NCBI GenBank assembly: GCA_963666985.2
Contig: CAXXIA010000001.1
Span: 384,001-448,000, forward strand
From: Spirochaetia bacterium
Lineage (GTDB): Bacteria; Spirochaetota; Spirochaetia; DSM-2461
Reading direction: 5' to 3'
Length of the DNA: 64,000 nucleotides
The notes beneath the pieces are model-generated. The model made no database searches. It was not told the DNA's origin and worked only from the letters and a program-made list of their open reading frames with translations. Below, piece after piece: positions 18,257-45,224 of the stretch (the stretch's first letter is position 1; each line of letters opens with the position of its first letter). The translations under genes and the position numbers were made by a program.

Positions 18257-19222
18257 TTAGGCCGCTCTGTCGGGCCTTTTGGTTTTTAAAGCGTCCAGGA
18301 GATCCGCGCTTGAAGGTATATGCCTGACGTTCCCATGTGAGTCGAATGAAATCAGGGCTTTCAGCATGCCCAAATCCTTTAAACCGAGGACAATCCACTG
18401 TTCTCCGGTTTCGGAAAAAGGATGATGTTTTTTCGCCATGCCGTCAAAGCTGAAAAGACCGTCTTGATGATCGATTGAAGGAAAGTATTCCCGACGGAAC
18501 AATTCCAATCCGGATCGGTTGAGTTCGGTTTTTACCAGAAATGACCAGCACGTATCGGAAACGGCGAGGTATACACCGGGGAAACCGAGTCTGAAAGAAA
18601 GCAGTTCTAAGTGATTTCTATTTTCCGGACGGTTGTATGGCGGAAAAAGAAGGTATTGATCCGAACGGCTTTTTTTAAAGGGCAGCCTGAAGGAATCCTG
18701 AAGCTCATATCCGGCGGTTTTGAAATCCAAGGTCCCTTGTTTGTAAGAATACGCGGCGTTAGAGAGTTCCTTCCAGTCCGTATCGACATCAAAGCGATTC
18801 TCGATGAGTCTGTAACGCCGTTCAAACCAAATCATCATATCGGTATTGAACGGTATCATCGTACTGAAACGGTCTGAGGAAAAGGCCTCGGTATACCAGC
18901 AGTTGTGGGCATCGTAAGATTTGCAGATGAGGCTTTGATAGGGTTTGTTATGAATGGAGCATTTCCCTTCCGTTCTGTCCAAAAAACCGCATTTACGGCC
19001 CAGATAGATCGTCCATTCACCGGATTGTTTCAGTGCGGGAAAGATTCCGTTGTAACAGGAAGCTAAAGTTAGATTGATAAAATCATTTCGTGTTTCAAGA
19101 CGGAACGGCATGAGCGGCAGATTCGCGCAGCAGTGACTTTGAAAGCATTGACGGCAGGGAGTCTGCAGCCAGGGATCTTGCCTGATTTTGATATCGCCCC
19201 GCAGGGATATTTTTTCTTTCAA
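18257..19222 (-). CDS. YkgJ/CxxCxxCC-like cysteine-cluster protein
   Basis: CRQCFQSHCC...CGFL..KCSIH..ICKSY; probable TTG start after SD GGAGA. Confidence 0.65.
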   Translation of the reverse strand: MKEKISLRGDIKIRQDPWLQTPCRQCFQSHCCANLPLMPFRLETRNDFINLTLASCYNGIFPALKQSGEWTIYLGRKCGFLDRTEGKCSIHNKPYQSLICKSYDAHNCWYTEAFSSDRFSTMIPFNTDMMIWFERRYRLIENRFDVDTDWKELSNAAYSYKQGTLDFKTAGYELQDSFRLPFKKSRSDQYLLFPPYNRPENRNHLELLSFRLGFPGVYLAVSDTCWSFLVKTELNRSGLELFRREYFPSIDHQDGLFSFDGMAKKHHPFSETGEQWIVLGLKDLGMLKALISFDSHGNVRHIPSSADLLDALKTKRPDRAA

Positions 19223-19334
19223 AAACGAATCTCTCCGATACCGAAGAGATATACTCCAAGGAACAAGATTCTGTAAAGATGGGATTGACCGACAGCCTGA
19301 TTTCTCGCCATACAGTGCTGTGGAGAGAATATAA

Positions 19335-20975
19335 TTGAATAGCATTTTTAATCCCAAGCTCTTTTCTCTTTTACGTCAGGGGATAAGTAGAGATCAAATC
19401 GCCGCAGACATATTTTCCGGTGTGGTTGTCGGCATTGTCGCATTACCTCTTGCAATCGCGTTCGCCGTCGCTTCGGGAGTTTCCCCGCAGAAGGGACTTA
19501 TTACAGCCATTATTGCCGGTTTTTTGATTTCGGCTCTCGGCGGAAGCAGGGTCCAGATCGGCGGGCCGACCGGTGCTTTTGTCGTCATCGTCTACGGTAT
19601 CGTTGAACGCTACGGTATCGACGGTTTGATTGTTTCCACGATGATGGCGGGAGTTCTGTTGGTTGTATTCGGGGTACTGCGATTGGGAGCTCTTTTAAAG
19701 TACTTCCCGCAATCCCTCATTGTCGGATTTACTTCCGGCATCGCTCTGGTGATTTTTTCCACTCAGGTGAAAGATGCCTTGGGGCTGAGTATTTCCCAGG
19801 TCCCATCGGATTTCATTGGTAAATGGCAAGTTTATTTTGAGCATATAGCAACCATTAATCCTTATGCGCTGGGGCTGACGATTTTTACGATTCTTATTAC
19901 GATTACAGCCGGACGGTTTACGGGAAGAGTTCCGGGCTCCTTTATCGCTCTTATTCTCGGAACCCTTATCGTTCTGTTCGGGAAACTCCCGGTTGAAACA
20001 CTGCGGTCAGTATACGGGGCTATGCCTCGCGGATTCAGCGTCGGTTTGCCAACGATCCACTTGTCCGATTTGCCTGCGTATATTCAGCCTGCTGTTAATA
20101 TCGCTTTGTTGGGCGCCATCGAATCACTTTTATCGGCGGTAGTTGCCGACGGAATGATCAGCGGCCATCACCGCTCAAATACGGAGTTAATCGCGCAAGG
20201 AATCGCCAATATCGTTACGCCTCTTTTCGGAGGAATCCCCGCGACGGGCGCCATCGCCAGAACCGCGGTCAATATAAAAAACGGAGGCCGAACGCCCATC
20301 GCCGGAATTGTCCATTCCGTGACTCTTTTGCTGATTATGCTTTTTTTCGGACGATATGCGGAACTGATACCTGTTCCGGTACTGGCCGGCATTCTTATTG
20401 TCGTGGCATACAATATGAGCGAATGGCGTACCTTTATCGGAGTCCTTCGGGGATCTTCCTTTGATATCCTTGTTCTGCTCTCGACGTTCTTTTTAACGGT
20501 TCTTGTGGATCTTACCGTGGCGATTCAGGTTGGTGTCGTTCTTTCGGCATTGCTGTTTATGCGCCGTATGGCCATTATCCCTTCCGGTTTGCCCGCGGAA
20601 GTTGATAAAGATATTATAGAAGATTATTCCGATTTACCCCGTGATGTATCGGTGTATGAAATCAGCGGACCGCTTTTTTTCGCGTCGGCCCGGGAATATG
20701 CCGAAACGATAAAGGTGGCCGGTATTCGGAAAAGGGTTTTGATAATCCGTATGCGGCATGTCCCCTTTATTGATGCTACCGGCCTGCATAATTTGGAATC
20801 GGCCGTTACCATGCTCCGTCATTCGGGGGTGGATGTTATTTTCTCCGGTGTTCGGGAGCAGGTGATTTCAGAATTAACACGATTCGGAATAGGACCCCAA
20901 GAAGGCGGCTTGATGTTTTTCGATACATTCTCCGGGGCCTTGGAATACGCGCTGACTTATAATGGCCAAGAATAA
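19335..20975 (+). CDS. SulP-family anion permease with STAS domain
   Basis: VALPLAIAFA, GGSRVQIGGPTGAF, PATGAIARTA, STAS motif GPLFFA..FIDATG. Confidence 0.93.
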   Translation: MNSIFNPKLFSLLRQGISRDQIAADIFSGVVVGIVALPLAIAFAVASGVSPQKGLITAIIAGFLISALGGSRVQIGGPTGAFVVIVYGIVERYGIDGLIVSTMMAGVLLVVFGVLRLGALLKYFPQSLIVGFTSGIALVIFSTQVKDALGLSISQVPSDFIGKWQVYFEHIATINPYALGLTIFTILITITAGRFTGRVPGSFIALILGTLIVLFGKLPVETLRSVYGAMPRGFSVGLPTIHLSDLPAYIQPAVNIALLGAIESLLSAVVADGMISGHHRSNTELIAQGIANIVTPLFGGIPATGAIARTAVNIKNGGRTPIAGIVHSVTLLLIMLFFGRYAELIPVPVLAGILIVVAYNMSEWRTFIGVLRGSSFDILVLLSTFFLTVLVDLTVAIQVGVVLSALLFMRRMAIIPSGLPAEVDKDIIEDYSDLPRDVSVYEISGPLFFASAREYAETIKVAGIRKRVLIIRMRHVPFIDATGLHNLESAVTMLRHSGVDVIFSGVREQVISELTRFGIGPQEGGLMFFDTFSGALEYALTYNGQE

Positions 20976-21127
20976 GGAAAAAGGGCAATTCGCTATAGAT
21001 TGATCATAGGCGTTCCGGAAGAACGTGTGGAGTGGGTACCGCCGTTCGCCTCAGGTGCGGCAAAGGGCATGGAGAGTACCCGGATATCCGGCGTTCGGAG
21101 GAAACGCGAAAGCTGGCTTTGGCAATC

Positions 21128-21613
21128 CTCTCAACTTCAGCGCCTGGTGTTCTTTCGGAACTCAGCCGCTTCGTTTCGGCCATGTGCAAGCTGATGCTTG
21201 CCCGCGGCTCTCAACTTCAGCGCCTGGTGTTCTTTCGGAACTCAGCCGCTTCGTTTCGGCCATGTGCAAGCTGATGCTTGCCCGCGGCTCTCAACTTCAG
21301 CGCCTGGTGTTCTTTCGGAACTCAGCCGCTTCGTTTCGGCCATGTGCAAGCTGATGCTTGCCCGCGGCTCTCAACTTCAGCGCCTGATGTTTTTCCGGAA
21401 CTCAGCCGCTTCGGCTCGACTATGCCCAAACGGTAGTTTGGTCACAGCCCTCGCTCTCAGCGTCTGATGGGAATCCCCTTCAGTCGGCCACGTCGTGTGG
21501 CCTCCTTGCGGGCCGTCTCCGGCGGCTTTCGCCGACATCCTGTCGGCTCATCGCTCCTATTGTCGCGCGCCGCCTCCGCTTCGATTCCCATCGGGCTTAC
21601 TCTGTAGATAAAC
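21128..21613 (-). repeat. tRNA-Gly-linked modular repeat array (left)
   Basis: Units start AGCG(C/T)CTG at 21139, 21219, 21299, 21379 (80 bp each) and 21459 (long unit, interrupted by the IS, resuming at 23336). Confidence 0.92.
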
Positions 21614-23336
21614 GGGGCTGTCTCATTAGTTTGAGACAGCCCCTTTTAAAATTTGGTTGACCTCCGAAGACGGGAGGTTCCCTCCCATCCCCTTATCGTT
21701 TCTGTAGCTTCCTCATGTTATGAGCCATACTCAACAGTCCCCATTCAGTACTGACCATCTTCAATCCCCTGGTTCGGAATCTCCGAAATCCCATATTCGT
21801 CTTGATATCTCCGAATACAGATTCGACTTCAATCGGCCTGAGAGAGCGCATTCTCAGTCCTTCCTCTGAAGTCAGCAACTTGCGCACTTCAGACTTATGC
21901 CGTTCCAGGTTTGGACGAACCGTCAGGATGCGCTCTTTGCCTCCGTATTTGCAGCACCGGATTCGGAGAGAACACCTTTGGCATCCAGGGCCTGTATACC
22001 TTTTTTCAGTGGTCGGAAATCCTGAACCTGTTTTCGAGATTCTGGTCTCCTCGTGTTTGAATCGGCGACCCTTGGGGCACCGGTATGTATCATCAGAGGC
22101 ACGATAGTCCCAGTTCTCTTTCATATGAATCTGCTTCTTGAACTTCCGTTTCCGCTCCCTGTGGAAGTAGCTGAACTTGATGTACTTCTCGACACCATGA
22201 TCCTCACACCACTGGTAGTTCTCTTCACTACCATATCCTGAATCAGCAATGATTCTTTTCGGATAGCGTTTCAGATTCTTTTTCAGTTTCTCCATATGTA
22301 GCGGCAATGTCAGGGAGTCACCGGGACTCTGGTGGATGCTATATCCGAGGATGAACTGGTTCTCAGTACCCATTTGGATGTTGTACCCGGGCTTGAGCTG
22401 ACCATTTTTCATATAGTCTTCTTTCATCCGCATGAAAGTCGCATCATAGTCTGTTTTCGAGTAACTATTTCGGTCGCCGAGGATTCTCTTCTGCTGCTCA
22501 TACTTTTTGGCACGAGGGAGATAGTCCTTGCTAGCGGTATTCAATCTCCGTTGAATCTCCTTCTTTTCTCGCTCCTCCCGATCCTTGCGCAGCTCTTCAT
22601 TGAGCTTGGATACCGCATCTTCGAGAATCTCCGACATCGGCCTGCCTTGAGGATCCACATGGGGAAGGTCATGGTCGCCGTACTTCTCATCCTCTTCTTC
22701 ATTGATGCGGTCGATGTATTCGAAAAGCTCATCCATATTGCCGGCCAGGCGCTTCTGGAACTTGTCTGTCGCCCGGCCCCATACCCATGTGTATTTGTTA
22801 GCTGCTGATTCGATTTTTGTGCCGTCGAGAAAGTAGTTCTCCATCTGGACATGTCCGCTCTCGATGAGGCTGTTGGCCATTGAGGCAAAGATTTTCTCGA
22901 TGCTCTTCTTCAATGGACCGTTACGAAATCTGTTTATCGTGTGGAAATCAGGACGGTTATTACCACTGATCCACATGAAGCATATCTGCTCACGAAGAGC
23001 GTCTGCGATTTGACGACAGGAATACAGCTGTTTCGAGTAGGCCAACACCAGAACCTTCAGCATCATCACCGGGTGGTAGCTGCTGGCACCGCCTCCCGGA
23101 TAGGCGTTGAAGAGCTCACTGGTATCCATCGTGTCGATGAAGTTGTTGATTGTGCGGGATATATGGTTTGCGGGAAGCAGTTCATCGAGACTTGGAGGCA
23201 GGAGCATCTGTTGGCTGATTTCGTAATCTTTGAATGTAGCCTTCTTTTTAGTGTCCATGAAGAATTCTACCACCCTTGAATTCAGAAGGGAATTCTTCCA
23301 GACATGAAAAAGGGCCGCCTCTTATGAGACAGCCCC
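21614..23336 (-). mobile_element. IS1182-family insertion sequence
   Basis: 13-bp perfect TIR GGGGCTGTCTCAT (21614-21626) / ATGAGACAGCCCC (23324-23336) around a single transposase; no target duplication seen. Confidence 0.9.
21693..23258 (-). CDS. IS1182-family DDE transposase
   Basis: YHPVMMLKVL, PDFHTINRFR, FLDGTKIE, SKTDYDATFMRMK, IADSGYGSE, VESVFG. Confidence 0.93.
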   Translation of the reverse strand: MDTKKKATFKDYEISQQMLLPPSLDELLPANHISRTINNFIDTMDTSELFNAYPGGGASSYHPVMMLKVLVLAYSKQLYSCRQIADALREQICFMWISGNNRPDFHTINRFRNGPLKKSIEKIFASMANSLIESGHVQMENYFLDGTKIESAANKYTWVWGRATDKFQKRLAGNMDELFEYIDRINEEEDEKYGDHDLPHVDPQGRPMSEILEDAVSKLNEELRKDREEREKKEIQRRLNTASKDYLPRAKKYEQQKRILGDRNSYSKTDYDATFMRMKEDYMKNGQLKPGYNIQMGTENQFILGYSIHQSPGDSLTLPLHMEKLKKNLKRYPKRIIADSGYGSEENYQWCEDHGVEKYIKFSYFHRERKRKFKKQIHMKENWDYRASDDTYRCPKGRRFKHEETRISKTGSGFPTTEKRYTGPGCQRCSLRIRCCKYGGKERILTVRPNLERHKSEVRKLLTSEEGLRMRSLRPIEVESVFGDIKTNMGFRRFRTRGLKMVSTEWGLLSMAHNMRKLQKR

Positions 23337-23345
23337 TCTTGGGGT

Positions 23346-23412
23346 AGCGCCTGGGAATCGAACCCACGTCACGAGCTTTGGAAGCTTTCCAGGCACCATT
23401 ACATCACCCTGC
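23346..23412 (-). pseudogene. Chimeric/degenerate tRNA-Gly copy (att-like remnant)
   Basis: 3' half matches the tRNA at 34093-34164 except a 3-nt deletion and anticodon CCC>CCA; 5' half is a different tRNA-like sequence (GCAGGGTGATGTAATGGT); acceptor stem cannot pair. Confidence 0.8.
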
Positions 23413-23430
23413 ATTCTATATGTGGGCTAA

Positions 23431-23459
23431 AGCATAATATGAGTCCGGCTCATTGTCAT
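23431..23459 (-). promoter_or_regulatory. Putative sigma70 promoter upstream of the pseudo-tRNA
   Basis: Minus strand ATGACA-N17-TATGCT, 18 nt upstream of the tRNA-like 5' end. Confidence 0.45.
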
Positions 23460-23592
23460 ATTTCCAGGAAATAAAATGCCAATAGAATGCCGGTAGGACT
23501 GGGAACGGTATTCCTTAATTCGTTCAGTTCCATAATGAGTTTATCGGTGTCTAGCAAAGCGGGGAGTTCCAAAAAAGCCTGATTAGCCGCTA

Positions 23593-26500
23593 TTACACAA
23601 GGGCGGTCGTTTCGTCTTCGATATCCAGAACAGGCGAACCGATCAGCATGCTGGCACCAAGATGGGCGGGATCAGATTCCAGAACGTTATGGAAATGGAC
23701 CAGGGCTTCGCTTTTCTGTCCCAGGCCGGCCTTGGCCAAGGCCATGAGAAATCGGCAATGGGTTCTGTTATTCCGGTTGAGATCGTCGTCGAAGAGCTGG
23801 ATATCCGGAAGTGAGACGGCAAAGAAATCGATTTTCACTTCATCAAAAAGATGCTGCTCACCGTAGTCCAGAAGCTTGTTGAAAAGACTTTTTGCCGTTT
23901 TCCTCTTGCCTAGTTTTAGCCATGCCAGAGCTTGATAGAAAATCATATCCGCCGGCTGATCATTGTAGAACATAGCAGCGACAGGCTCGGAATCACCAAG
24001 GGTGGCCAGTTCAAATTCCTCTTTCGCGGCTGCCTCCTCCTTCTGTTTCTGGCGACAGAGACCCAGAAGATAATGAATGTCGTTGTCCTTTCGGCCTATC
24101 AATTTCCCTTCCCCGAGATTGACCGGATAGCTGAGGCTTTTGTTGAGTTTTTCCACCGCGTCTTCAATTCGGCCGTTTTTCATCGATTGAACGGCAAGTT
24201 CTCTCAGGGCAATGACAAATTGAGAGGAAACTTTTCCTTCACCTCCTTCCCAGGGATGGAATCTGGTTTCTTTAATGAAGTCCAGAGCCTTCTGATAATC
24301 GCCCGTGAGATTGAGGAGCGTGGCATATTCAACTTTCAGGTCGTCCCGGACTGGAATAAGCGATAAATGTTTCAGAAAATTCTCCAGTCTATTCTGAGGT
24401 TGGTGGCCGAATTTCTTGTGGAGCTGATCAAGTTCGTAAAACACTCTGGCATCAGTGGGATCGCAGGCGAAAGCGGCTTCCATCTCCTTCATAGCCGAGA
24501 TTTTATCGTTCTTCTTGTTGAACAAGACAATGGAGAGGTTTCTGTGGGACGTTGGGAAATCTGGAGCGATACGTGCGCTTCGGTTCCAGTATTCGAAGGC
24601 ATCGTCGTATCTGCGTTTGTCGTAGCAGAGGTTACCCTGCATGTAAAGCGCCACCCAATCGTTCGGCGAGGCCTCAATGGCGTGTAAAAGGGCGTCCTGA
24701 TCGTCCAGAGTATAGGCAAAACGGGATACGGGCATCTGTCCGGCGGCTTCCTTCAGGAATACTTCATCATTCATTCCCTGCTTTGCTGCGTAGAAGGCTT
24801 TATGGTAGGACACCAGAATGTCTTCTCCTGGGTAGCGCTGAAGTATTTCCAGGGCTTCTTCACAGCAACCTGTTCGGGCGAAGTCCGCGGCCAGGGAGAG
24901 GTAGGTTTCTACACGGCCACCGATTCGCTGATCGATATTGAATCCAACGGCTCGGCTTTCTAGTTTTTCCAGAACGAGGGCGGATCCGTAATCGAAAGGA
25001 TTTTCGATGAGATTCTCTTTGGCCGCCTCGACGGCTTCGGCAAGGTTACCCTTCTTCTGAAGAATGAAGGCTTTCAGGAACCGGGCCGTGGTGTTTCGGG
25101 TATTGTATTGCAGGGCCTGATTGACGAAGGCCAGGGCTTCATTCCAGGCATCTCTCCTACAGGAGATAAAGGACAGCATGGAGAAGGCGACTCCAGCCTG
25201 TCCTTGAGTCCATGTGGCCTTGTAGAAATGGTCGAAAGCCTCTTTCTCACGACCCAGCCGGAACAGGATGAAACCGTAAATCAGATGGGGCTCGCTGTCT
25301 GCGGGATTCGTGTTGAGCATTTCCATGCGTTCGATGGCCTTGCAGCAGTAGGTCTCCGCCAGGGCGGCATCCCCCCGACGGAATTGAAGAGCCGCCATAG
25401 CCGTGTTAATTCGGATGTCACCCGGGTCCCGGCGGAGTCCTTCTTCGTAGTAAAGATCTGGAATGTATGTGGCATGGCGGTACTGTTCGATGTGGCGGCC
25501 CACAAGAAGCAGTTCTTCATTTGTGCGAATTGTATCGGGCGTACCTGGGGCCTTTGCCGGTTCCGGCAAGGGCTTCACCGTGGATTTTTGGGGAGAGTAA
25601 CGGATGAGTTTCCGTCCATTGGAGTCGAAGACGGTTAAGAGCAGTTCCTCCTTTTCGCAATGAATGCCTTCAACCTTTTTCTCGAAGAACATATCTGGAG
25701 AGGTGGAGATAGTTTGATCCACAAAAATTTCTTTTCCGGAGAGAACCACACGAATGTTCTTTTCAGTTCCAGTGGAGTAAACCGCAAACCACGCTGTTCC
25801 TTCTGACACTTCCAGGTTGACAAGGATGTCTTTCGTGGCGTTTTTTACGGAGCCGAGTCCTTTATAGGGAAGGAAATACTGTGTGAAATGCTTTTCCTCG
25901 TACGGCCGAAGCCATGAAAAATCGGGCTGATTATCGGTGTACATTCCCGTCATCAGTTCGATGTAGGGGCCGTTTTTATCAGTGAGGTTCCTGTCCCAGG
26001 CCAGGCCGAAGTCCCCGCATCCCCAGGTCCACTGCTTTTTTCCGGGGGAGACGTGGTGATCGGCTACATGAAGGATTCCCGCTTCCTCTTCGTAGTCGTA
26101 ACCGCCGACGAAATCGTAATCGCTTCGGTAGGCCATGTAGGAGGTGGGAACCGGGAGGTTCTTGTACCGGGAAATATCCACACCTTCCGAATAGTCATAT
26201 TTGTAGTATTCGCCCGTGGCTATCGGGAAGCGGGAAACCGCCCGTTTGCCATGGTCGTATACGGCATGCACGTCCGGAGGGAATATGGACTGGGTATGAT
26301 CGTTGACCGCCACGGCGGGGTTCGCCCACCATAGGAATGTCTGGGTCATGTTGGTGGGGTTGAAAACGCTGGAATTGATTTCAATATAACTTTTTTCGGC
26401 GTGAAGGCAGAACTCCGTCACGACACTGGTTCCGCTGATTCTATCGTAGTCATAAACCTTAACGCTTGATATATCTCCGTCGTTTTCTTCGATGGAATAG

Positions 26501-26895
26501 TCGACATTCATGAATGTCGTGGGACGGTGGTGCTGCGGCCAGTTGAATTCGATTCCTCCGGAAACCCAGGGGCCGAGGAGTCCTACGAGGGCCGGTTTGA
26601 TGACTTCATTGTGGTAGACGAAGTCGTAACCGTTGGTCTTGTCGAAAGCCCGATGGATTTTTCCACCGATTTCCGGAAGTACAAGAACCTTTATATATCT
26701 GTTCTCGAGATAAATTCCTGTGTATTCCTTGTCATGGATGTCGTCCTCAAGGGTATCGATAACCGGATAGGGATAGACTTTCCCGCTGGATCCCTGATAA
26801 ACGCGCTTTTCGAAGAACATTGGGTTCCTGTTCGGCTTTCCCATTCCATAGGTGGGAATTACAACTTTCTCGGTCCATGCCCTTGCGGTTTTCAT
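23593..26895 (-). CDS. DUF5107 + TPR protein (YphG-like)
   Basis: KRVYQGSSGKVYPYP, IKPALVGLLGPWVSGGIEFNWPQHHRP, many TPRs, FHPWEGGEG; SD GGAGG. Confidence 0.88.
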   Translation of the reverse strand: MKTARAWTEKVVIPTYGMGKPNRNPMFFEKRVYQGSSGKVYPYPVIDTLEDDIHDKEYTGIYLENRYIKVLVLPEIGGKIHRAFDKTNGYDFVYHNEVIKPALVGLLGPWVSGGIEFNWPQHHRPTTFMNVDYSIEENDGDISSVKVYDYDRISGTSVVTEFCLHAEKSYIEINSSVFNPTNMTQTFLWWANPAVAVNDHTQSIFPPDVHAVYDHGKRAVSRFPIATGEYYKYDYSEGVDISRYKNLPVPTSYMAYRSDYDFVGGYDYEEEAGILHVADHHVSPGKKQWTWGCGDFGLAWDRNLTDKNGPYIELMTGMYTDNQPDFSWLRPYEEKHFTQYFLPYKGLGSVKNATKDILVNLEVSEGTAWFAVYSTGTEKNIRVVLSGKEIFVDQTISTSPDMFFEKKVEGIHCEKEELLLTVFDSNGRKLIRYSPQKSTVKPLPEPAKAPGTPDTIRTNEELLLVGRHIEQYRHATYIPDLYYEEGLRRDPGDIRINTAMAALQFRRGDAALAETYCCKAIERMEMLNTNPADSEPHLIYGFILFRLGREKEAFDHFYKATWTQGQAGVAFSMLSFISCRRDAWNEALAFVNQALQYNTRNTTARFLKAFILQKKGNLAEAVEAAKENLIENPFDYGSALVLEKLESRAVGFNIDQRIGGRVETYLSLAADFARTGCCEEALEILQRYPGEDILVSYHKAFYAAKQGMNDEVFLKEAAGQMPVSRFAYTLDDQDALLHAIEASPNDWVALYMQGNLCYDKRRYDDAFEYWNRSARIAPDFPTSHRNLSIVLFNKKNDKISAMKEMEAAFACDPTDARVFYELDQLHKKFGHQPQNRLENFLKHLSLIPVRDDLKVEYATLLNLTGDYQKALDFIKETRFHPWEGGEGKVSSQFVIALRELAVQSMKNGRIEDAVEKLNKSLSYPVNLGEGKLIGRKDNDIHYLLGLCRQKQKEEAAAKEEFELATLGDSEPVAAMFYNDQPADMIFYQALAWLKLGKRKTAKSLFNKLLDYGEQHLFDEVKIDFFAVSLPDIQLFDDDLNRNNRTHCRFLMALAKAGLGQKSEALVHFHNVLESDPAHLGASMLIGSPVLDIEDETTALV

Positions 26896-26924
26896 TGCGC
26901 AACGCCTCCATTGGTCGTAGGCAT

Positions 26925-26990
26925 AACGTATCATTCAGATCTTCAACTCGCTATGGCGAGGATTGCGGTTGTATTGCAGAAAATTGCTTA
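26925..26990 (-). promoter_or_regulatory. Putative AraC-activated promoter of the DUF5107 gene
   Basis: GCAA half-sites 21 bp apart; proximal site 33 nt upstream of extended -10 TGATACGTT; same geometry as 31603-31668. Confidence 0.6.
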
Positions 26991-27058
26991 TTTGGTTGGA
27001 CGACTTTTTATACAAGGTTTATGGTGTTTACTGAGAACGATCAGTATTGAGTATCGCC

Positions 27059-27898
27059 ATGAAAGTAAACGAAACCGGAGTTCTTGAGAGTTCTGAGGTC
27101 TTCTTTTCAACCCCGAGTGCGGCGGCCCAGTCGATTTTCTTCCATTTGCTTTGCTGTGGTAATTTTGACTGTAATTCGCATTACCGGGTAAAACGAAGCC
27201 AGTATAACAGTATTTTGCTTATATTGGTTGTGCGTGGATCGGGGTACGTCATCAAAGCCGGGAAGAGGGTGGCCTTGAAGGAAGGATCTATGGCCCTTGT
27301 GGACTGTTTCCAACCGCACGAGTACGGTTCAACCTCGGGATGGAAAATCCTCTGGTGCCATTTCCAATCCTCTCAGATTCTGGAGTGGTACAAACGCGCC
27401 GACAGTCAATCCGGAGGAGTCGTTCAACTTCTTGATTTTAACGCCGCTCTTCAGAGTATGAAGCAGATGATCGGACAGTTTAAAAGACAAGAGGAGGCGA
27501 ACGAAGCGGTTACCCACCTTCATCTTACCCGTTTGCTAACCGAATTCCTGCGGCCGCAGTCTCAGGGTTCTAATTCTGGTCAAACCTTTGAAAGTCTTAT
27601 TGCATATATCAATGAGAATCTTGACAAGAGAATTAAGGTTGAGGAACTCGCGGATATGGCCGGACTTTCCGTGTATCATTTTATACGGGAGTTCAAGAAA
27701 GACATCGGATACACGCCCCATGAGTACTTGATTCATGCCCGGATCAATGCCGCCAAGTTTTATCTGAAGACGACGAGAAATCCCATCAAGACGATTGTTT
27801 CCGATTGCGGTTTTTCCAGCGACAGCGCATTCTCCAATTCCTTTAAACGAATTGTGGGAACGACACCGGCTGTATTCCGGGAGTCGGGAGCTGAATGA
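27059..27898 (+). CDS. AraC-family transcriptional regulator
   Basis: Cupin-like N-term; C-terminal HTH LADMAGLSVYHFIREFKK..CGFSSDSAFSNSFKR..GTTP. Confidence 0.93.
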   Translation: MKVNETGVLESSEVFFSTPSAAAQSIFFHLLCCGNFDCNSHYRVKRSQYNSILLILVVRGSGYVIKAGKRVALKEGSMALVDCFQPHEYGSTSGWKILWCHFQSSQILEWYKRADSQSGGVVQLLDFNAALQSMKQMIGQFKRQEEANEAVTHLHLTRLLTEFLRPQSQGSNSGQTFESLIAYINENLDKRIKVEELADMAGLSVYHFIREFKKDIGYTPHEYLIHARINAAKFYLKTTRNPIKTIVSDCGFSSDSAFSNSFKRIVGTTPAVFRESGAE

Positions 27899-27946
27899 AA
27901 AAAGGCTGCCGCCCGAGCCTTTTCAGACTTGGACAACAGCCTTTTG
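27899..27946. terminator. Bidirectional intrinsic terminator
   Basis: AAAAGGCTG...CAGCCTTTT inverted repeat between convergent genes. Confidence 0.55.
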
Positions 27947-27962
27947 AATTCAACCGGTCAAA

Positions 27963-28950
27963 TCATTCGGCGTATTTGCCCATGATTTCCTGATAGTTCT
28001 CAGGGGTTACAACAGCTGCGTCAACGGCGGTTTCCATGGGAACGTCGTTTCCGGCGATGATGTCGAGGAGAACTTCAACGGATCCGGCTCCAACGCTTTC
28101 GGAGGAGAAATACGCCGCGGCTTTCATGGCCGATCCGCCTGCCTTCTTGAATTCGTCTTTGGCCATGTAGGCGCCCAGGCCCACGACCACCGATTCGGTA
28201 TCCAGACCGGCGCTTTCCAGGGCGCGAACGGCACCGACGGTTCCTTCTTCATTGGCGCCGGTTACAAGCCATTTCGTAATTTCAGGATGAGCTGTGAACA
28301 CGGCCGAAGAAACCTGGTTGCCCTTATCGGTGGTGCCGTCGTAGTCGGCATAGAAAATTCGGTCTTCCGGGAAATTGGGGGCCATTTCTGTGAACTTGGC
28401 ATATTCACCTTCGGCGCGGGGAACGCAGGAGGAAACTGTGTCCATGGTCATGATCAGAAGACCGACTTTCGGATCGTTGGTCATTTTGTTGTCTGAAGCG
28501 TACTGGGCGAGCCAGGCGCCGTTGGCCTCGCCGATAACATAGGCGTTGATTCCCACCCAGGGAGCAAGCTTTTTGCCATTCTCTTCAAGTGCGTCATCGG
28601 CCGCTACCACGGGGATTCCCGCTTCTTCCAGCTTACTGACTGTAGCCCTGCTCATGGTCTGGTCGGGAATGCAAGTCACAACACCGGCAGCGTTGTTCGC
28701 AATGGCATTATCGATGGCCCGAAGATATTCTTCGGGATTCATTTTTGCATCCACATAAATGAATTCGTATCCGGCCGCTTCGGCTGTGGCTTTCGCGGCT
28801 TCACCTTCATCAATAAACCAGGTCTGATCACCCGCTTTGTAGATTCCGTAGATAACAGGTTTTCCCGAGCTTTTCTCGCCGGAACCTTCAGAGAAGGCAA
28901 ACGCTGCACAGAGAAGAATGAGCAACACTACCAAACCGCTTTTTTTTCAT
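27963..28950 (-). CDS. Monosaccharide ABC substrate-binding protein (AraF-like); frameshifted in an A8 run right after the ATG
   Basis: Periplasmic-binding fold (WFIDE, IPVVAADD); SD AAGGAG + ATG at 28950 is out of frame with A8, and A7 gives signal peptide MKKSGLVVLL... Confidence 0.85.
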
Positions 28951-29017
28951 AAAAACGCTCCTTTATGGGGATAACCCCATGATTTTTATCTATGCCGGCA
29001 GACGCCGGCTGTTTTCC

Positions 29018-30055
29018 TTAAGACCGGGCCGCTTTCTTGCTGGCTTCCAGAAGAGCCCTTTCCCTGTTTCCTTTCCGCAGGAAGTCGCTGGTCAGGGCTA
29101 CAAGAAGGAGTCCGCCACGGGCCACGTACTGCCAGAAAGAGGGGACATTAACCATTGTGAGTCCCGTATTGAAAGCCTGAATGAGGATTATGCCCAGGAA
29201 GGCTCCGGTCATATCACCGATACCGCCGGCAAAGGAAATACCTCCCAGAATTACGCCGGTGATGGCATCGAATTCCAGATTCACATTGGCCGCCGGCTGG
29301 CCGGAGTTCATTCTTGCCGAGAAGACGATTCCCCCGACCGCACTGAGAACACCCATGATGATGAACATGATGGAAATGGTTTTTTTCGGATTGAGTCCGG
29401 CCAGTCTTGCTGCAGAGATGTTTCCGCCTACAGCATAAACGCTTCGGCCGAATTTGGTTCTGGCCAGAATGAATCCGAAGAGGATCATGAGAAGCAGCAT
29501 GATCCAGACGGAAATCGGGAGGCCTATAATCCTGGCTTTGCCCAGGGCAATGTAAACCGGATCGCTGATGGCCACGGGTTTTCCCCCGCAGATGATATAG
29601 GCGAATCCTCGGATAATGGTCTGCGTGACAAGCGTTGCGATGAACGGCTGTAGCTTGATTCTGTTGACCATGAAGCCGTTAAAGAATCCCAACAGGCCTC
29701 CGGCCATCAGTGTGACGATGATGACCAGATAGAAACTCATGCCGACACTCACGAGGGTTGCGGCAAGGACGCCGCTGAACGCCACAAGGGAACCGGGGGA
29801 GAGATCCACCTGAGCCGCGATGATCAGGTAAGTTTCTCCGATGGCTATCAGTCCCGCCAGCGAAGCGGCAACGAGAATGTTGACCATGTTCGTTTTTGAC
29901 AGGAAGTTTCTGTTGAGGGCGGTGAACAGAATGGTAACTGCTATTATGGCGAATACCAGAATTAGTTTCCCGCCGTCGACGCCGGATAGAAAACCGGATT
30001 TCTCTTTTCGGGATTTCGTAACCTTGTTCTGTTTGTTGGATGCTTCGCTACTCAT
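29018..30055 (-). CDS. Monosaccharide ABC permease (AraH/RbsC-like)
   Basis: DLSPGS, PFIATL, TKFGRSVYAVGGN..AARLAG, VILGGISFAGG. Confidence 0.92.
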   Translation of the reverse strand: MSSEASNKQNKVTKSRKEKSGFLSGVDGGKLILVFAIIAVTILFTALNRNFLSKTNMVNILVAASLAGLIAIGETYLIIAAQVDLSPGSLVAFSGVLAATLVSVGMSFYLVIIVTLMAGGLLGFFNGFMVNRIKLQPFIATLVTQTIIRGFAYIICGGKPVAISDPVYIALGKARIIGLPISVWIMLLLMILFGFILARTKFGRSVYAVGGNISAARLAGLNPKKTISIMFIIMGVLSAVGGIVFSARMNSGQPAANVNLEFDAITGVILGGISFAGGIGDMTGAFLGIILIQAFNTGLTMVNVPSFWQYVARGGLLLVALTSDFLRKGNRERALLEASKKAARS

Positions 30056-31571
30056 ATTCTTTCCTTCGTCCCTTATTCTTTTCTTCCATGGCGAGTCTTA
30101 AAAGAAGGTCTTCCGTTGCATCTTTTCTCATGACTTCACCCGATATTTCACGATTTCGCATAACGATGATGCGATCCGACAAGCCGATGACTTCCGGAAG
30201 TTCACTGGAGATGAGAATGACTCCTAGTCCCTGAGCGGCGAAATCGCAGATCATCTGGTAGAATTCGCTTTTCGCCCCGACATCAATGCCTTTGGTGGGT
30301 TCATCCAGAATGAGAACCTTGGGGTTCGTGGCCATCCAACGGGCCACTATGCATTTCTGCTGGTTACCGCCTGAGAGCTCGACGATCATTTTCTGAGGAT
30401 TGGGCGTTTTGACGTTGAATCGGTCGATGTATTCGGATACAAGGGCCTTTTCCAACGAACGGTTGATTACCCCCATTCGGTTGGTATTGCTGCTCATGGC
30501 CCCTATTGCGATGTTGTCGGCAACGTTGAGGTTCTCCAAAATCCCTTGAGTCTTCCGGTCTTCCGGAACCATTACGATGCCGTTCATGGCCGCTTCGCCT
30601 GGGGATTTATTAAGAATCTCTTTTCCTTCGAGTTTCACCATTCCGGACTGCATTTTGTCGGCGCCTATGATGGCCCTCATGATTTCCGTTCTACCCGCTC
30701 CCACCAGTCCGCTGAAACCGAGAATCTCACCGCGTTGAAGCTTGAAGGATATCGGTTCCACGAAGTCGCTTGAGCAATTCTCGACTTCCAGAAGAACATC
30801 TCCCTGGGAAGAGGCGCGCTCCAGATTCCCGAAGATGTTTCCAAGGTCGCGACCCACCATCATTCGGATCATCGTTTGCTCATCGGTGGTCTTGGCATCC
30901 ACGATGTCGATGAAGCGGCCATCCTTGAAGATGGCCGCTTTGTCGGCAATCTGCTTTATTTCGTTCATGCGGTGGGAAACATATATGACGACTTTCCCTT
31001 CATTCCGAAGCTTTTCGATAATGGCGAAGAGTTTCTCGATTTCTGAATCGCTCAGGGGGGCCGTCGGTTCATCGAAGCAGATGCAGATGAGATTTTCCCG
31101 GCTGTAAGCCTTCATGATTTCCACCATCTGTTGATAGGCGATGGAGAGATCCTTGGCCTTGTCCGTGGCTTTGAAAGGAAGACCGAATTCTTTAATAAGT
31201 GCTTCGGTTTTCCGATTGGCTTCCTTCACATTAATTATACCGAGTCGATTGCTGGGCATTCGTCCGAGGTAAATATTTTCGGCCACCGAGAGTTCCATCA
31301 GGATCTGCCGCTCCTGATAAATCACGCTGACTCCGGCTTCAATGGCCTGATGGGGAGAAGTGAAATGGACCTCTTTGCCGTTCAGCAGATAGCTTCCGCT
31401 GCTGGGTTGATAATCGCCGTTAAGCGTTTTAAGCAGAGTGGATTTTCCCGCTCCGTTTTCGCCGAGGAATGCCAGAACCTCTCCTCCCTGAGATGTGAAA
31501 CTTACATCATCAAGGGCTTTGACTCCGGGGAAGTACTTCGTGATGTTTTTAAACTCGACAGAATTGGACAC
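30048..31571 (-). CDS. Monosaccharide ABC ATPase (AraG/RbsA-like)
   Basis: GENGAGKSTL, LSGGNQQK, DEPTKGIDVGAK; GTG start after SD GGAGG (alternative ATG at 31586). Confidence 0.93.
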   Translation of the reverse strand: MSNSVEFKNITKYFPGVKALDDVSFTSQGGEVLAFLGENGAGKSTLLKTLNGDYQPSSGSYLLNGKEVHFTSPHQAIEAGVSVIYQERQILMELSVAENIYLGRMPSNRLGIINVKEANRKTEALIKEFGLPFKATDKAKDLSIAYQQMVEIMKAYSRENLICICFDEPTAPLSDSEIEKLFAIIEKLRNEGKVVIYVSHRMNEIKQIADKAAIFKDGRFIDIVDAKTTDEQTMIRMMVGRDLGNIFGNLERASSQGDVLLEVENCSSDFVEPISFKLQRGEILGFSGLVGAGRTEIMRAIIGADKMQSGMVKLEGKEILNKSPGEAAMNGIVMVPEDRKTQGILENLNVADNIAIGAMSSNTNRMGVINRSLEKALVSEYIDRFNVKTPNPQKMIVELSGGNQQKCIVARWMATNPKVLILDEPTKGIDVGAKSEFYQMICDFAAQGLGVILISSELPEVIGLSDRIIVMRNREISGEVMRKDATEDLLLRLAMEEKNKGRRKEYE

Positions 31572-31602
31572 GATCTCTGCCTCCATTACAGGCTAGAAAA
31601 TT

Positions 31603-31668
31603 ACTGTATCACGGTGAATTTAAGGGTGAATTAGTAAAAGTTGCTCACTCTTTGTAAAAAATTGCTCT
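31603..31668 (-). promoter_or_regulatory. Putative AraC-activated promoter of the ABC operon
   Basis: GAGCAA direct repeats 21 bp apart; proximal site 33 nt upstream of TGATACAGT. Confidence 0.6.
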
Positions 31669-31702
31669 GTATAGTCATTGATATGTGCGGTAACGTTTTC
31701 CC

Positions 31703-32620
31703 GTGGACAAAATCACCATACTGACCAATCAAGCCTTATCCGTTTCAATTCATCCATTTGGCTGTTCTCTTTTTCGTCTGCTGACTGCCGATGGGTTTTC
31801 TCCTCTTCTGGCAAGCCGAGAACCGGCTATGGCCTATGGAGGGGCCATTATCGGACCATGCTGCGGGAGGATTCCCAATGGTTTCGTTGATATGGACGAC
31901 TGTCAGATTTCTCTCTCAATGAACGAAAAGAAACATCATCTCCACGGTGGATATTTTAGTACAGCCCTTCGGTCCTGGGAACTTATGGAACGGAGTGGCA
32001 CATCCGTTTTGTTTAGGATTGCGGTTAAAGATGGTGTAGACGGATATCCGGGAAATCGACTTTTTCAGACACGATACTCCCTGGACGACATGGCCGTTTT
32101 TGTGGAAATTCAGGGTGAGTCAGATCGGCTGACCATCGTTAATCCGACGAATCATGCGTATTGGAATCTTAATGATGAATCTGTTTCATCGGTTTTGAAC
32201 CATCGATTCAGGATTTCATCATCCTTATATTATCCGACTAATGGAGAAATGTTGCCGCAGAAACCCCAGCCTGTCTATGGGACTTCCTTCGATTTTAATT
32301 CACCAAGATCCCTGAAAAAAGCCCTGGAGATTGATTGTCCCTCGGATCAGTTGAAAATCGCCAAGGGTTTTAATCATGGCTGGCGGTCATCTTCGTTGTA
32401 TTGCGAGGGTAATAGAGGCGGGCTGCGGGTAACATCCGATGCCGATGATATTTGGCTTTATTCAGGTGGTTTCTTGGACAGAACCATGATACTAGAGGAT
32501 GGTTCCTGCGCAAAACCGTCCTGTGCGTTCGCCGTTGAGCCCCAGAATATCGGAAGGCCGACCCTGCTGCACCCAGGAGAAATTTTTATACGCAGTATCG
32601 AGTTCAAGTTGCAGAATTAG
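31703..32620 (+). CDS. Aldose 1-epimerase (GalM-like)
   Basis: HHLHGG, DGYPG, NPTNHAYWNL, FAVEPQ. Confidence 0.85.
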   Translation: MDKITILTNQALSVSIHPFGCSLFRLLTADGFSPLLASREPAMAYGGAIIGPCCGRIPNGFVDMDDCQISLSMNEKKHHLHGGYFSTALRSWELMERSGTSVLFRIAVKDGVDGYPGNRLFQTRYSLDDMAVFVEIQGESDRLTIVNPTNHAYWNLNDESVSSVLNHRFRISSSLYYPTNGEMLPQKPQPVYGTSFDFNSPRSLKKALEIDCPSDQLKIAKGFNHGWRSSSLYCEGNRGGLRVTSDADDIWLYSGGFLDRTMILEDGSCAKPSCAFAVEPQNIGRPTLLHPGEIFIRSIEFKLQN

Positions 32621-32724
32621 TCCCGGTCTTCTAAGCAGAACCGGATTGGTCGTTTTTCGGGTTACATCGAGATCTGTCTTGAAGTATCAAAAACCCGACC
32701 TAAATATCGGTTTCCTTTTAAATT

Positions 32725-34092
32725 AGCGCCTGATGTTCTTTCTGAACTCAGCCGCTTCGTCTCGGTCATGTGCAAGCTGATGCTTGCCCGCGGCTCTCAA
32801 CTTCAGCGCCTGATGCGATTTGGACGCTCAGGCACTTCGGCTCGACTATGCCCAAACGGTAGTTTGGTCGCAGTCCTCGCTCTCAGCGCCTAGATGGGAA
32901 TCCCCTTCAGTCGGCCACGTCGTGTGGCCTCCTTCCGGGCCGCTGGTTCAGCTTGGCTCGGCTTCGTGCCTCACCTTGCTCTCTGTTCGGTCGCAAACAG
33001 CTTCACCCTTCGATTCCCATCAGGCTTACTCTGTAGATAAACGAAAACCCGCTTTAACGGGTTTTCTCTTGGGGTAGCGCCTGATGCGATTTGGACGCTC
33101 AGCCGCTTCGTTTCGGCCATGTGCAAGCTGATGCTTGCCCGCGGCTCTCAACTTCAGCGCCTGATGGGAATCCCCTTCAGTCGGCCACCTCGTGTGGCCT
33201 CCTTGCGGGCCGTCTCCGGCGGCTTCCGCCGACATCCTGTCGGCTCATCGCTCCTATTGTCGCGCACCGCCTCCGCTTCGATTCCCATCGGACTTACTCC
33301 GGAGAATAACGAAGCCCACCTTTCGGCGGGCTTCTAAGTGGTAGCGCCTGATGGGAATCCCCTTCAGTCGGCCACCTCGTGTGGCCTCCTTGCGGGCCGT
33401 CTCCGGCGGCTTCCGCCGACATCCTGTCGGCTCATCGCTCCTATTGTCGCGCACCGCCTCCGCTTCGATTCCCATCGGACTTACTCCGGAGAATAACGAA
33501 GCCCACCTTTCGGCGGGCTTCTAAGTGGTAGCGCCTGATGGGAATCCCCTTCAGTCGGCCACCTCGTGTGGCCTCCTTGCGGGCCGTCTCCGGCGGCTTC
33601 CGCCGACATCCTGTCGGCTCATCGCTCCTATTGTCGCGCACCGCCTCCGCTTCGATTCCCATCGGACTTACTCCGGAGAATAACGAAGCCCACCTTTCGG
33701 CGGGCTTCTAAGTGGTAGCGCCTGATGGGAATCCCCTTCAGTCGGCCACCTCGTGTGGCCTCCTTGCGGGCCGTCTCCGGCGGCTTCCGCCGACATCCTG
33801 TCGGCTCATCGCTCCTATTGTCGCGCACCGCCTCCGCTTCGATTCCCATCGGACTTACTCCGGAGAATAACGAAGCCCACCTTTCGGCGGGCTTCTAAGT
33901 GGTAGCGCCTGATGGGAATCCCCTTCAGTCGGCCACCTCGTGTGGCCTCCTTGCGGGCCGTCTCCGGCGGCTTCCGCCGACATCCTGTCGGCTCATCGCT
34001 CCTATTGTCGCGCGCCGCCTCCGCTTCGATTCCCATCGGACTTACTCCGGAGAATAACGAAAGCCTACCTTGCGGCAGGCTTTCTAATCAGT
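32725..34092 (-). repeat. tRNA-Gly-linked modular repeat array (right), 9 units
   Basis: Units start AGCGCCT at 32725, 32805, 32885, 33076, 33156, 33343, 33530, 33717, 33904 (80, 80, 191, 80, 187x4, 189 bp). Confidence 0.95.
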
Positions 34093-34164
34093 AGCGCCTG
34101 ATGGGAATCGAACCCACGTCACGAGCTTGGGAAGCTCGGGTAATAGCCATTATACGACAGGCGC
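34093..34164 (-). tRNA. tRNA-Gly(CCC)
   Basis: Acceptor stem GCGCCTG/CAGGCGC, discriminator U, anticodon arm CGAGC-TTCCCAA-GCTCG, T arm GTGGG-TTCGATT-CCCAT; CCA not encoded. Confidence 0.95.
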
Positions 34165-34178
34165 GAATTGTGAGGCCT

Positions 34179-34208
34179 ATCCTAGCGCCGGTTTTACGGA
34201 ATGGTCAA
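34179..34208 (-). promoter_or_regulatory. sigma70 promoter of tRNA-Gly
   Basis: Minus strand TTGACC-N18-TAGGAT. Confidence 0.6.
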
Positions 34209-34340
34209 GGTCGGGGAGACTAAGAATCGGTACGGATCGGCATTGCGTGGAATCCGAGGAAGGCTGTGTCCCCTTCAATAAGAACAAAAAAGAGATTTCT
34301 CCGGTAAACTGAATACACCCAAACAGCAAGTTGTCCGTCA

Positions 34341-34910
34341 ATGGATGTGAACGTTATGGATACGGATCAAATGCCGGAATCAGCGGAAACTCAAAGGCGC
34401 GTAGAGAACGTCTATAGAAGTGAAAAACATCGCTTCATGGCACGTTTGCGCGCCGCGGGACGGACGCTGGAGGAAGCGGAAGATTTTATCCATGACATTT
34501 ATATCGAGACGATGGAGAAATGGTCTTTGCTGCCGGAGGTACACAGTCTTCCGGCATGGATCAATTCCCTGTTTTCTCGGCGCATGATTGATGCCTGGCG
34601 GCATGAGAAGGTTCGCAAAGCGGCGGGGGAAACCGATGTGGCCGAAGAGACTCTTCGGGAAATCATTTGCGGTGTGGGACTGAATCCCCTGGACGAGTAC
34701 GTTCAGGAGGCCATGGTTGATGCGCTGAACTCAGCACTGAAGGCTCTTCCCGCTTTACAGAGACAAGTAGTAGAGGCCCAGGTTTTCGGCGGAATGACCT
34801 TTCGGGAAATCGCCGAATCGACGGGTGAGAATATCGACACCTTGAAAGCCCGCAAGCGTTACGCGCTGAAGAATCTGACGCGGGCATTAAGGCATTGGAT
34901 TATCGATTGA
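34341..34910 (+). CDS. ECF sigma factor
   Basis: Region 2 EEAEDFIHD..AW..IDAWR; region 4 LP..QRQV..GMTFREIAE..TLKARKRYA. Confidence 0.88.
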   Translation: MDVNVMDTDQMPESAETQRRVENVYRSEKHRFMARLRAAGRTLEEAEDFIHDIYIETMEKWSLLPEVHSLPAWINSLFSRRMIDAWRHEKVRKAAGETDVAEETLREIICGVGLNPLDEYVQEAMVDALNSALKALPALQRQVVEAQVFGGMTFREIAESTGENIDTLKARKRYALKNLTRALRHWIID

Positions 34911-44129: not shown

Positions 44130-45224
44130 TCAGTCTTTCCCGACGGTCTTTTCAACGGCTTTTCGATAGTCGTTTGCTCGTTTTTTCAGAAGGCGGTTCA
44201 TTCTGGCGGCGGCGCCGGCCGAAGGGATTTTCATCCGTATGTCGGGAAAATCCTGAGCGGCCTGTGGGGATGAAGCCTCGTCGATGAAATCCTCGATGGG
44301 AGAGACCGCACGGAACGCGAAAGGGGTAACAACGACTAAATCGGCCTCCTTCTCCGGTGCCGCCGCCTCCCATCCTTCGAAAGGAAGCGATGCGGTCTCG
44401 AAGGCAAAGCTCCGGTCCCGAATATCGCGGCGAGCGCTTTCGGTTCCGATGATGTCGTGTCGAGGCAGATAATGGGCGACAACATAAGGATTCGTAATAC
44501 CGGCGCCGCTTTTAAGCCGGGGAAGATCTTCGGCTCTAACCCAAAGAATTCCTTGAAAAGGTTTCTGATTCCCGATCATTTCCTCCGCATCGTCGGCGTA
44601 TTCATTCTCTTCGGCCGCGTTCTCCGGGGTGGTTTCGGGATTTTCAAGAAGGGACGAATCCGAATCGGCGTTCGCCGACTGAAGAATCCCCGGATTAAAC
44701 ACACGGTTTGTGGAGAGAGGCAGAAGCTTTATCGGTTCTTCATCCGGCGCAAGGTACGAATTGAACGTTCTGACATAGAGAATAAAATCCCGGTACTCAC
44801 GGTAGCCGAGGGAAGCGTCGGCGTTCAAAAGCAGCTTCTCGGCGTCTTTTACGGCCTCCGATTCGCCGAGGTTGCGGTCGGAAAGAAAAGTGTTTAATGA
44901 ATTCATGAAATTTGAGTTTAAAAAGAAGATGCCCCATTCCCTGATTCCCGAATCATAGAGAGCGGGCAGGAGACTGATCGCCAAATCAACCGTATCGGCC
45001 CGCATGGCATTATCCTGTAAGAGAATAACGGTTGCACCCGCATCATGGGCCTCCGCTATGAGATCCGCCGGAGACGGTCTGTCGGTATCCAGCCATTGAT
45101 GGAAATTCAGCGCGTTGGCGGAGGAGTATAACGCCTCGTTATTTCCGCAGGAGAGGAGGAACAGCGTCGCGGCGGTGAGTAGGAGAACGCGAAGCCTGTT
45201 CCCGATTATGAACTTATTCGACAT
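44130..45224 (-). CDS. Hypothetical lipoprotein
   Basis: Lipobox-like FLLSC after a hydrophobic stretch. Confidence 0.6.
   Translation of the reverse strand: MSNKFIIGNRLRVLLLTAATLFLLSCGNNEALYSSANALNFHQWLDTDRPSPADLIAEAHDAGATVILLQDNAMRADTVDLAISLLPALYDSGIREWGIFFLNSNFMNSLNTFLSDRNLGESEAVKDAEKLLLNADASLGYREYRDFILYVRTFNSYLAPDEEPIKLLPLSTNRVFNPGILQSANADSDSSLLENPETTPENAAEENEYADDAEEMIGNQKPFQGILWVRAEDLPRLKSGAGITNPYVVAHYLPRHDIIGTESARRDIRDRSFAFETASLPFEGWEAAAPEKEADLVVVTPFAFRAVSPIEDFIDEASSPQAAQDFPDIRMKIPSAGAAARMNRLLKKRANDYRKAVEKTVGKD

Follow-up and report, generated by a model that had tools for sequence, protein, structure and literature searches.

Two-hairpin repeats with target-matched tails behind tRNA-Gly and other gene ends in spirochaetes

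The closest described counterparts of the repeats studied here are the tRNA-linked repeats (TLRs) of E. coli. They are defined by their position and by 18 to 19 bp of identity with the gene end, and the account of their function in PMC8144298 names none besides that of three rRNA-linked TLRs, which are expressed as sRNAs that bind Hfq and CsrA. The set that we compared comprises the 178-bp repeats of tyrT/tyrV, RtT (RF00391), and rrA, rrB, and rrF. To our knowledge, the origin and function of E. coli TLRs have gone without explanation since 1978. Target choice by base pairing is a feature of IS200/IS605 elements, in which the target pairs with a guide adjoining a hairpin. Integron attC sites fold as imperfect hairpins with an unpaired base and RYYYAAC/GTTRRRY cores, as PMC5027507 outlines them. 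REPs are short imperfect intergenic palindromes near gene 3' ends and are patchy between species (described in PMC3733652). Finally, the end of an island that targets a tRNA gene is recognisable by a displaced 3' fragment of the tRNA (described in PMC4383910).

We analysed a window of 64,000 nt, the whole stretch of DNA under study (positions 384001-448000 of contig C1 in genome G000). Its sole tRNA gene, according to ARAGORN and Rfam, is tRNA-Gly(CCC), and the window contains two arrays of repeats. The features are as follows.

34093-34164, minus strand: tRNA-Gly(CCC), found by ARAGORN and Rfam, without an encoded CCA; the arrays have its 3' end as their target
33156-34092, minus strand: five long units of 187-189 nt, with the layout of E. 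coli TLRs
33076-33155, minus strand: 80-nt unit, head A on tail T2 (head 33110-33155, tail hairpin 33076-33107)
32885-33075, minus strand: 191-nt variant of the long unit, terminator-like hairpin at its start
32805-32884, minus strand: 80-nt unit, head B on tail T2
32725-32804, minus strand: 80-nt unit, head A on tail T1
32754-32835, no strand: breakpoints of an in-register 80-bp skip within the shared core (run X2)
23387-32724, no strand: putative integrase-less island in tRNA-Gly, judged from the flanking tRNA fragment
23346-23386, minus strand: 3' half of tRNA-Gly, displaced, covering positions 29-72 at 91% identity and lacking 3 nt; attR-like island end
21693-23273, minus strand: IS1182-family transposase, within the terminator-like spacer of the left array
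21459-21614, minus strand: long unit of the left array
21379-21458, minus strand: 80-nt unit, head B on tail T1
21139-21378, minus strand: three identical 80-nt units, head A on tail T1
21093-21138, minus strand: decayed head remnant at the end of the left array

Read down the minus strand from the tRNA gene, the right array consists of the five long units, the 80-nt unit at 33076, the 191-nt unit, and the 80-nt units at 32805 and 32725. In the left array (21139-21614), a single long unit is accompanied by four 80-nt units. Seven 80-nt units are present in the window (at 21139, 21219, 21299, 21379, 32725, 32805, and 33076), each exactly 80 nt, and five of the seven are distinct in sequence. 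Identical tandem copies occur (3 x 80 and 4 x 187). Each long unit in 33156-34092 begins with a terminator-like hairpin, continues with an inverted tRNA-end copy and the inner hairpins, and finishes with a 17-nt copy of the tRNA 3' end. The tRNA-Gly 3' end and the unit motifs quoted in the original prediction are present where it placed them. One extra base in the tRNA-end copy of the 191-nt unit (window 32885-32895), missing from the contigs of runs X1 and X2, restores the bulge opposite a perfectly complementary arm.

The 80-nt unit is predicted to fold as two hairpins, a head of about 46 nt and a tail of 32 nt. From the outside in, the head opens with two outer pairs and a tandem GA/GA, which are followed by a single G-C pair and a one-base bulge; six pairs and a one-by-one mismatch then lead to the inner stem. 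The two kinds of inner head hairpin occupy the same position in the unit, as had been proposed. The tandem GA/GA is kept in 22 of 23 tRNA-Gly units; we rejected a K-turn reading of this motif because the flanking pairs covary and there is no 3-nt bulge. In the tail, a copy of the last 8-11 nt of the tRNA pairs with an upstream arm (AGCG-R-CTGA), and a short variable stem-loop closes the hairpin. The resulting helix of 11-12 bp rebuilds G1-C72, C2-G71, G3-C70, and U73, with the equivalent of A64 (tRNA position 64) left unpaired. This A is unpaired in all 24 tRNA-Gly tails (13 bulges, 9 one-by-one mismatches, and 2 larger loops). Folding of the tRNA strand beats shuffled sequences (z of -3.0 to -4.6 as RNA and -3.3 to -5.0 as DNA), and the tRNA strand is the more stable one in 4/5 units folded as RNA and 5/5 folded as DNA.

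These units stand just downstream of a tRNA or rRNA gene on the same strand, and other family members follow protein genes or repeats. Like the E. coli TLRs of PMC8144298, they lie in tandem behind tRNA and rRNA genes and end in a copy of the gene 3' end. In the E. coli tyrT unit an upstream inverted copy of the end closes the helix, the same as in the long window units. However, the copy of the gene end is 8-11 nt in the 80-nt units and 17 nt in the 187-nt units compared with 19 nt in E. coli, the head of the 80-nt units is missing from the E. coli locus, and the spirochaete units are also found behind protein-gene stops and other repeats. The RtT model RF00391 had no match in window positions 32600-34400 at E<=5, and it matched an E. 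coli control 4 times. Like attC sites, the units have an imperfect hairpin with an unpaired base at their far end and form arrays of unlike members. Unlike attC sites, they lack RYYYAAC/GTTRRRY cores, and on both strands the tail helix closes on AGCG/CGCT. They also differ from integron cassettes in being without a cargo gene, having only the 32-nt hairpin (no Pfam family was found in ORFs over the arrays), and from the attC-like sites of the local integron. With REPs and REPINs they share short imperfect palindromes near gene 3' ends and a patchy presence, but the head feet are GAAG, GAGAG, and GCAG rather than GTAG or CGTC. In a further difference from the REP/RAYT pairing, no Y1 gene was found in the window's genome, and RAYT-like homologs elsewhere, apart from one genome discussed below, have no head nearby. 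By analogy, the units might work like a folded attC or a guide-bearing REP. Rfam has no family for the 80-nt units. Our literature search, with supplements and the original TLR papers outside its scope, returned no description of the 80-nt unit; a prior mention is possible.

A DNA search of 40 relatives found copies in 4. Loose pattern scans of genome, metagenome, and viral collections, in which most of the matches listed were false, added 5 true loci among 253 matches listed; all 5 were metagenomic, and no true units in viral contigs were among these matches. In an alignment of 15 distinct units, 92.5% of cells were paired, and 14 of 27 pairs had changed on both sides. None of 500 shuffles reached this level and slid controls gave 28-34%, with both controls leaving the relatedness of the rows in place; the rows are non-independent, and most palindrome-type tails come from one genome (G006). 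A model from the 15 units matched 8 of 37 genomes of the family and 5 of 150 of the class. A later set of 8 units of another family and 1 window row, from which the misaligned tail middle was excluded, was 92.1% paired, with two-sided change in 8 of 21 pairs. Compensatory changes therefore do maintain the structure, as the original prediction claimed, in the 15 units and again in the 8 of another family. At one locus (L377, G145:C30) a single array holds four unlike units, one of them cut to 66 nt by an internal deletion. The displaced tRNA half at that locus has a changed base, and this base pairs perfectly with the arm of the next unit.

The claim that heads and tails are shuffled also held. 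Among the five distinct window units, the two head types are separated by differences at 20 of 46 positions, compared with 0-2 within a type, and tails have 8 differences between types and 0-3 within a type. All four combinations of the two heads and two tails were found. Exchange is needed because these type differences are too many for repeated mutation. The GCCGCTTCG-like core had been named as the place of recombination, and a related strain bears this out. In a 16-kb contig of this strain (run X2; flank identity about 98%), exactly 80 bp are skipped between breakpoints at 32754 and 32835 in the core. The skip, seen in one contig, could be a gain or a loss. It yields head B on tail T1, the same hybrid form as at 21379. 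In-register exchange between neighbours is enough for the four combinations and for the local 80-nt length. Separately, a 153-bp back-joint in run X1 was rejected as a long-unit contig mapped on its variant.

The same head occurs at targets other than tRNA genes. We used a head-only model (R2), the alignment rows of which were chosen by a pairing descriptor, making their pairing circular and no evidence. It found 37 sites at E<=0.001 in the window's genome, 8 of which are tRNA-Gly units. With only 39 candidates per genome scored, R2 matched 13 of 150 genomes of the class and 0 of 150 drawn across the phylum. A head with a matched tail lies behind all three 23S rRNA 3' ends found in the genome. 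Units with head and tail also follow the glmS stop in five genomes (G000, G011, G018, G140, and G144), an unrelated ORF that shares the final bases of glmS (L419), a permease-like stop, and a palindromic repeat, for which G006 has many mixed arrays. The glmS stop-codon site is the one used by Tn7. In each target class the tail arm is complementary to the target end, and it tracks host variants (glmS of G018 and C197 of G006). One filled copy of the palindromic repeat is a clean 79 bp longer than an empty copy, with a direct repeat of 12 bp. Of 51 tails, 49 have an unpaired A ahead of the target helix (48 when L290 is counted as paired); the helix start having been set post hoc, this count shows only that the arm has no partner base there. 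Comparison of the left and right target copies over 10 nt in 30 first units gave identity in 12 and agreement at 5-9 of 10 in the others, which does not tell target duplication from an element-borne copy. Many other heads are parts of larger repeats without a duplicated target, such as the long units behind tRNA-Leu. Directly behind the glmS stop codon of the window's genome (G000:C2:972900-973330, L339) there is a complex array of several unlike hairpin units.

Why the window has two arrays is a separate matter. A displaced, same-orientation 3' tRNA fragment (23346-23386) lies beyond the right array, as in tRNA-targeted islands and as in G126, G145, and G163. We infer that the two arrays mark the two ends of an island in tRNA-Gly. 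Its genes (23387-32724) encode an aldose 1-epimerase, a sugar ABC transporter, an AraC regulator, and a DUF5107/TPR protein. In contrast to other tRNA-targeted islands, this one has no tyrosine integrase among its scanned ORFs (the genome's 7 PF00589 matches are all outside the window), and the units duplicate only about 10 nt. Both arrays contain a module of spacer, long unit, B unit, and A unit, and therefore probably have a common origin in one module. In G126, G145, and G163, units stand behind displaced tRNA-Gly halves of integrase-bearing islands, at both ends in G126. Island integration accounts for there being two arrays and leaves the nature of the units unexplained. We rejected the IS1182 element as the mover of the units, since it is a later insertion in the spacer and the units have no terminal inverted repeats. 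Three places in the genome have IS1182 ends within terminator-like hairpins that follow tRNA-linked arrays (window 21616-21644 and 23327-23337, and on G000:C2 behind tRNA-Leu(CAA) and tRNA-Arg(TCG)).

Several features bear on whether the units act as DNA or as RNA. Triloops close 28 of 51 tails; 21 of these triloops are GAA, AAA, or GCA, sequences that form stable DNA hairpin loops. GNRA tetraloops (7 of 51 tails) and CUUG-type loops (31 of 87 heads) are compatible with RNA. G.T pairs outnumber A.C pairs by 82 to 45 in 87 heads, and in the tRNA-Gly units the counts are 17 vs 21 and 8 vs 6, which favours neither strand. As PMC5737381 discusses, DNA and RNA folding are hard to distinguish computationally. 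The window units stand behind five or six terminator-like hairpins. We lean toward the view that the units act as DNA.

The window's genome encodes XerC/D, island integrases, an integron-like integrase with its own cassette sites, a retron, and one IS110, and among the loci scanned no head was near its recombinase, retron reverse transcriptase, or IS110 genes. The integron-like integrase is present in 2 of 14 genomes of the genus, and its cassette region has no head match. At this locus (G000:C2:1777136-1782000, L331:4137-9001), low-GC cassette genes follow an integron-like tyrosine recombinase, with long repeated sites between them that have TAAC...GTTA cores. The arrangement looks like a chromosomal integron whose attC-like sites are unusually long. 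The only reverse transcriptase found in the genome is of the retron St85 type, next to an effector gene (G000:C2:1836600-1838550, L328:4622-6536). PF01797 (Y1 transposase) had no match in the window's genome and is present in 2 of 14 genus genomes. RAYT-like homologs were found in 7 of 41 genomes, none of them in the family of the window's genome. In one genome, G110, both near-identical copies of a RAYT-like gene end beside a head, and one is cut in the head loop; among 13 loci scored by R2, these 2 were the only ones with a head beside the gene. At each G110 locus (L439:260-1305 and L468), the RAYT-like Y1 gene lies between an upstream palindromic element and a downstream repeat that contains a head. 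The end motif of this upstream element recurs at the borders of head-containing repeats in G004 and G007. No homolog of the G110 protein was found in the window's genome, and we saw no circles of units. We regard the G110 gene as a lead only in the search for the enzyme that moves the units.

Our best explanation is that the units are two-hairpin spirochaete repeats that likely spread as non-autonomous, folded single-stranded DNA, placed behind a matching target by an enzyme acting in trans, and then underwent in-register exchange. We give this reading about an even chance of being right. The conserved head would be a protein-binding hairpin. The 5' arm of the tail, complementary to the target 3' end, would select the target, with the 3' arm repeating it, and the unpaired A might mark the register. 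The intermediate would be single-stranded DNA, and a recombinase or transposase supplied in trans would place the unit behind the matching target; candidates are an HUH (RAYT-like) transposase and a tyrosine recombinase. Neighbouring units could afterward gain, lose, and swap parts by in-register exchange or slippage. The original prediction offered a tRNA-mimic minihelix or a recombination substrate. The second of these is near our best reading, and the first fared poorly.

If the units were tRNA-Gly minihelix mimics under selection, they might be cut by RNase P and RNase Z, CCA-tailed, and perhaps charged or used as decoys. The tail does remake G1-C72, C2-G71, G3-C70, and U73 on its helix and, like tRNA acceptor/T-arm minihelices, has an acceptor-like helix, with 6/7 acceptor pairs, that ends in a discriminator. 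However, this discriminator pairs with the base before the helix, and pair 4-69 is a purine-purine mismatch in 13 of 15 units. The T-arm was examined in 24 distinct tRNA-Gly units. Tail T2 fits the T-loop consensus, but 2 of 24 units do so altogether. The tRNA register gives 4/5 T-stem pairs in 9 of 24 and 5/5 in none, and a 7-nt tail loop occurs in 3 of 24, all from the window. In all five distinct window units the register yields only 4/5 pairs, with an A.A clash. The proposed T-arm geometry and T-stem are thus not supported, and the hairpin sketched for them corresponds to the inner stem alone; the predicted fold bulges A64 and continues into the acceptor-like helix, which had been overlooked. 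In contrast to tRNA minihelices, the units have neither a conserved T-loop nor a conserved T-stem. The claim that the units are always 80 bp is correct in the window (7/7 units) and fails elsewhere: 80 nt is found only in the five distinct window units, and the other 19 of 24 are 66-79 nt. With lengths ranging from 66 to 80 nt, selection on length is not supported. Of 18 tRNA-Gly loci in genus relatives, 4 are directly followed by units; in four near-complete relatives (1-2 contigs each), 0 of 8 loci are. The same head stands on tails matched to targets other than tRNA. These absences and tails argue against mimicry as the purpose. A conserved tRNA mimic is unlikely because the T-arm test failed and the units are patchy among relatives, and we consider selected mimicry very improbable. 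The units are a real, structured, recombining repeat and no T-arm mimic; they resemble a minihelix incidentally, because their target is an acceptor stem.

The repeats might also arise without a dedicated enzyme, through template switching at hairpin-rich gene ends, palindrome correction, slippage, and travel within island attachment sites. Palindrome correction would give compensatory changes without selection, and slippage would yield the identical tandem copies and the 80-bp skip. Units do lie at island ends in the window, G126, G145, and G163, and no enzyme co-occurs with them. However, fresh fold-backs would pair perfectly, yet the A is unpaired in 48-49 of 51 tails across four target classes; the GA/GA pair and the bulge of the head persist; and the presence of the same 45-nt head at unrelated targets is left unexplained. 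We think such an origin rather unlikely. An RNA function, as a structured trailer or selfish RNA co-transcribed with tRNA, rRNA, and mRNA ends and stabilising or processed, possibly even copied back by a reverse transcriptase, seems unlikelier still. It would fit the sense orientation of all units just behind transcribed genes, several of which are tRNA genes followed without a terminator. The CUUG-type head loops, the GNRA loops of family f10, and the tandem GA pairs are compatible with RNA, and three E. coli TLRs are the expressed, Hfq- and CsrA-binding sRNAs reported in PMC8144298. The terminator-like hairpins that precede the window units, the patchy presence among relatives, and the mostly triloop tails all speak against it, as does the sole reverse transcriptase found, a retron St85 type with its own effector.

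Folded single-stranded DNA placed in trans remains our preferred reading. A more general version is that the units are mobile elements of about 75-80 nt in which a fixed protein-binding hairpin is joined to an exchangeable arm that reads the target by pairing and is naturally reprogrammed between targets (tRNA-Gly, 23S rRNA, glmS and permease stops, and palindromic repeats). We consider this version possible but doubtful. If it is true, then the same logic could explain the tRNA-linked repeats of E. coli. A single short, well-covarying unit whose arm is matched to each of several unrelated targets makes the question of origin testable, together with the empty/filled pair and the rearrangement between strains: it comes down to which protein binds the head and whether the site changes with the arm. 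If changing the arm moves the site, insertion would be programmable, in a very small system directed to safe gene ends. If it does not, the units give a well-described example of how structured repeats turn over at island attachment sites. The family occurs in free-living spirochaetes.

Two further observations concern the window. Two long ORFs on the minus strand have no Pfam match (18257-19357, 366 aa, and 44130-45224, 364 aa), and the first of these is possibly a shadow frame. In the long units (33156-34092), the inner hairpin has a CAGGATG loop that fits the CsrA-binding consensus, and similar loops are present in long units behind other tRNAs of the same genome.
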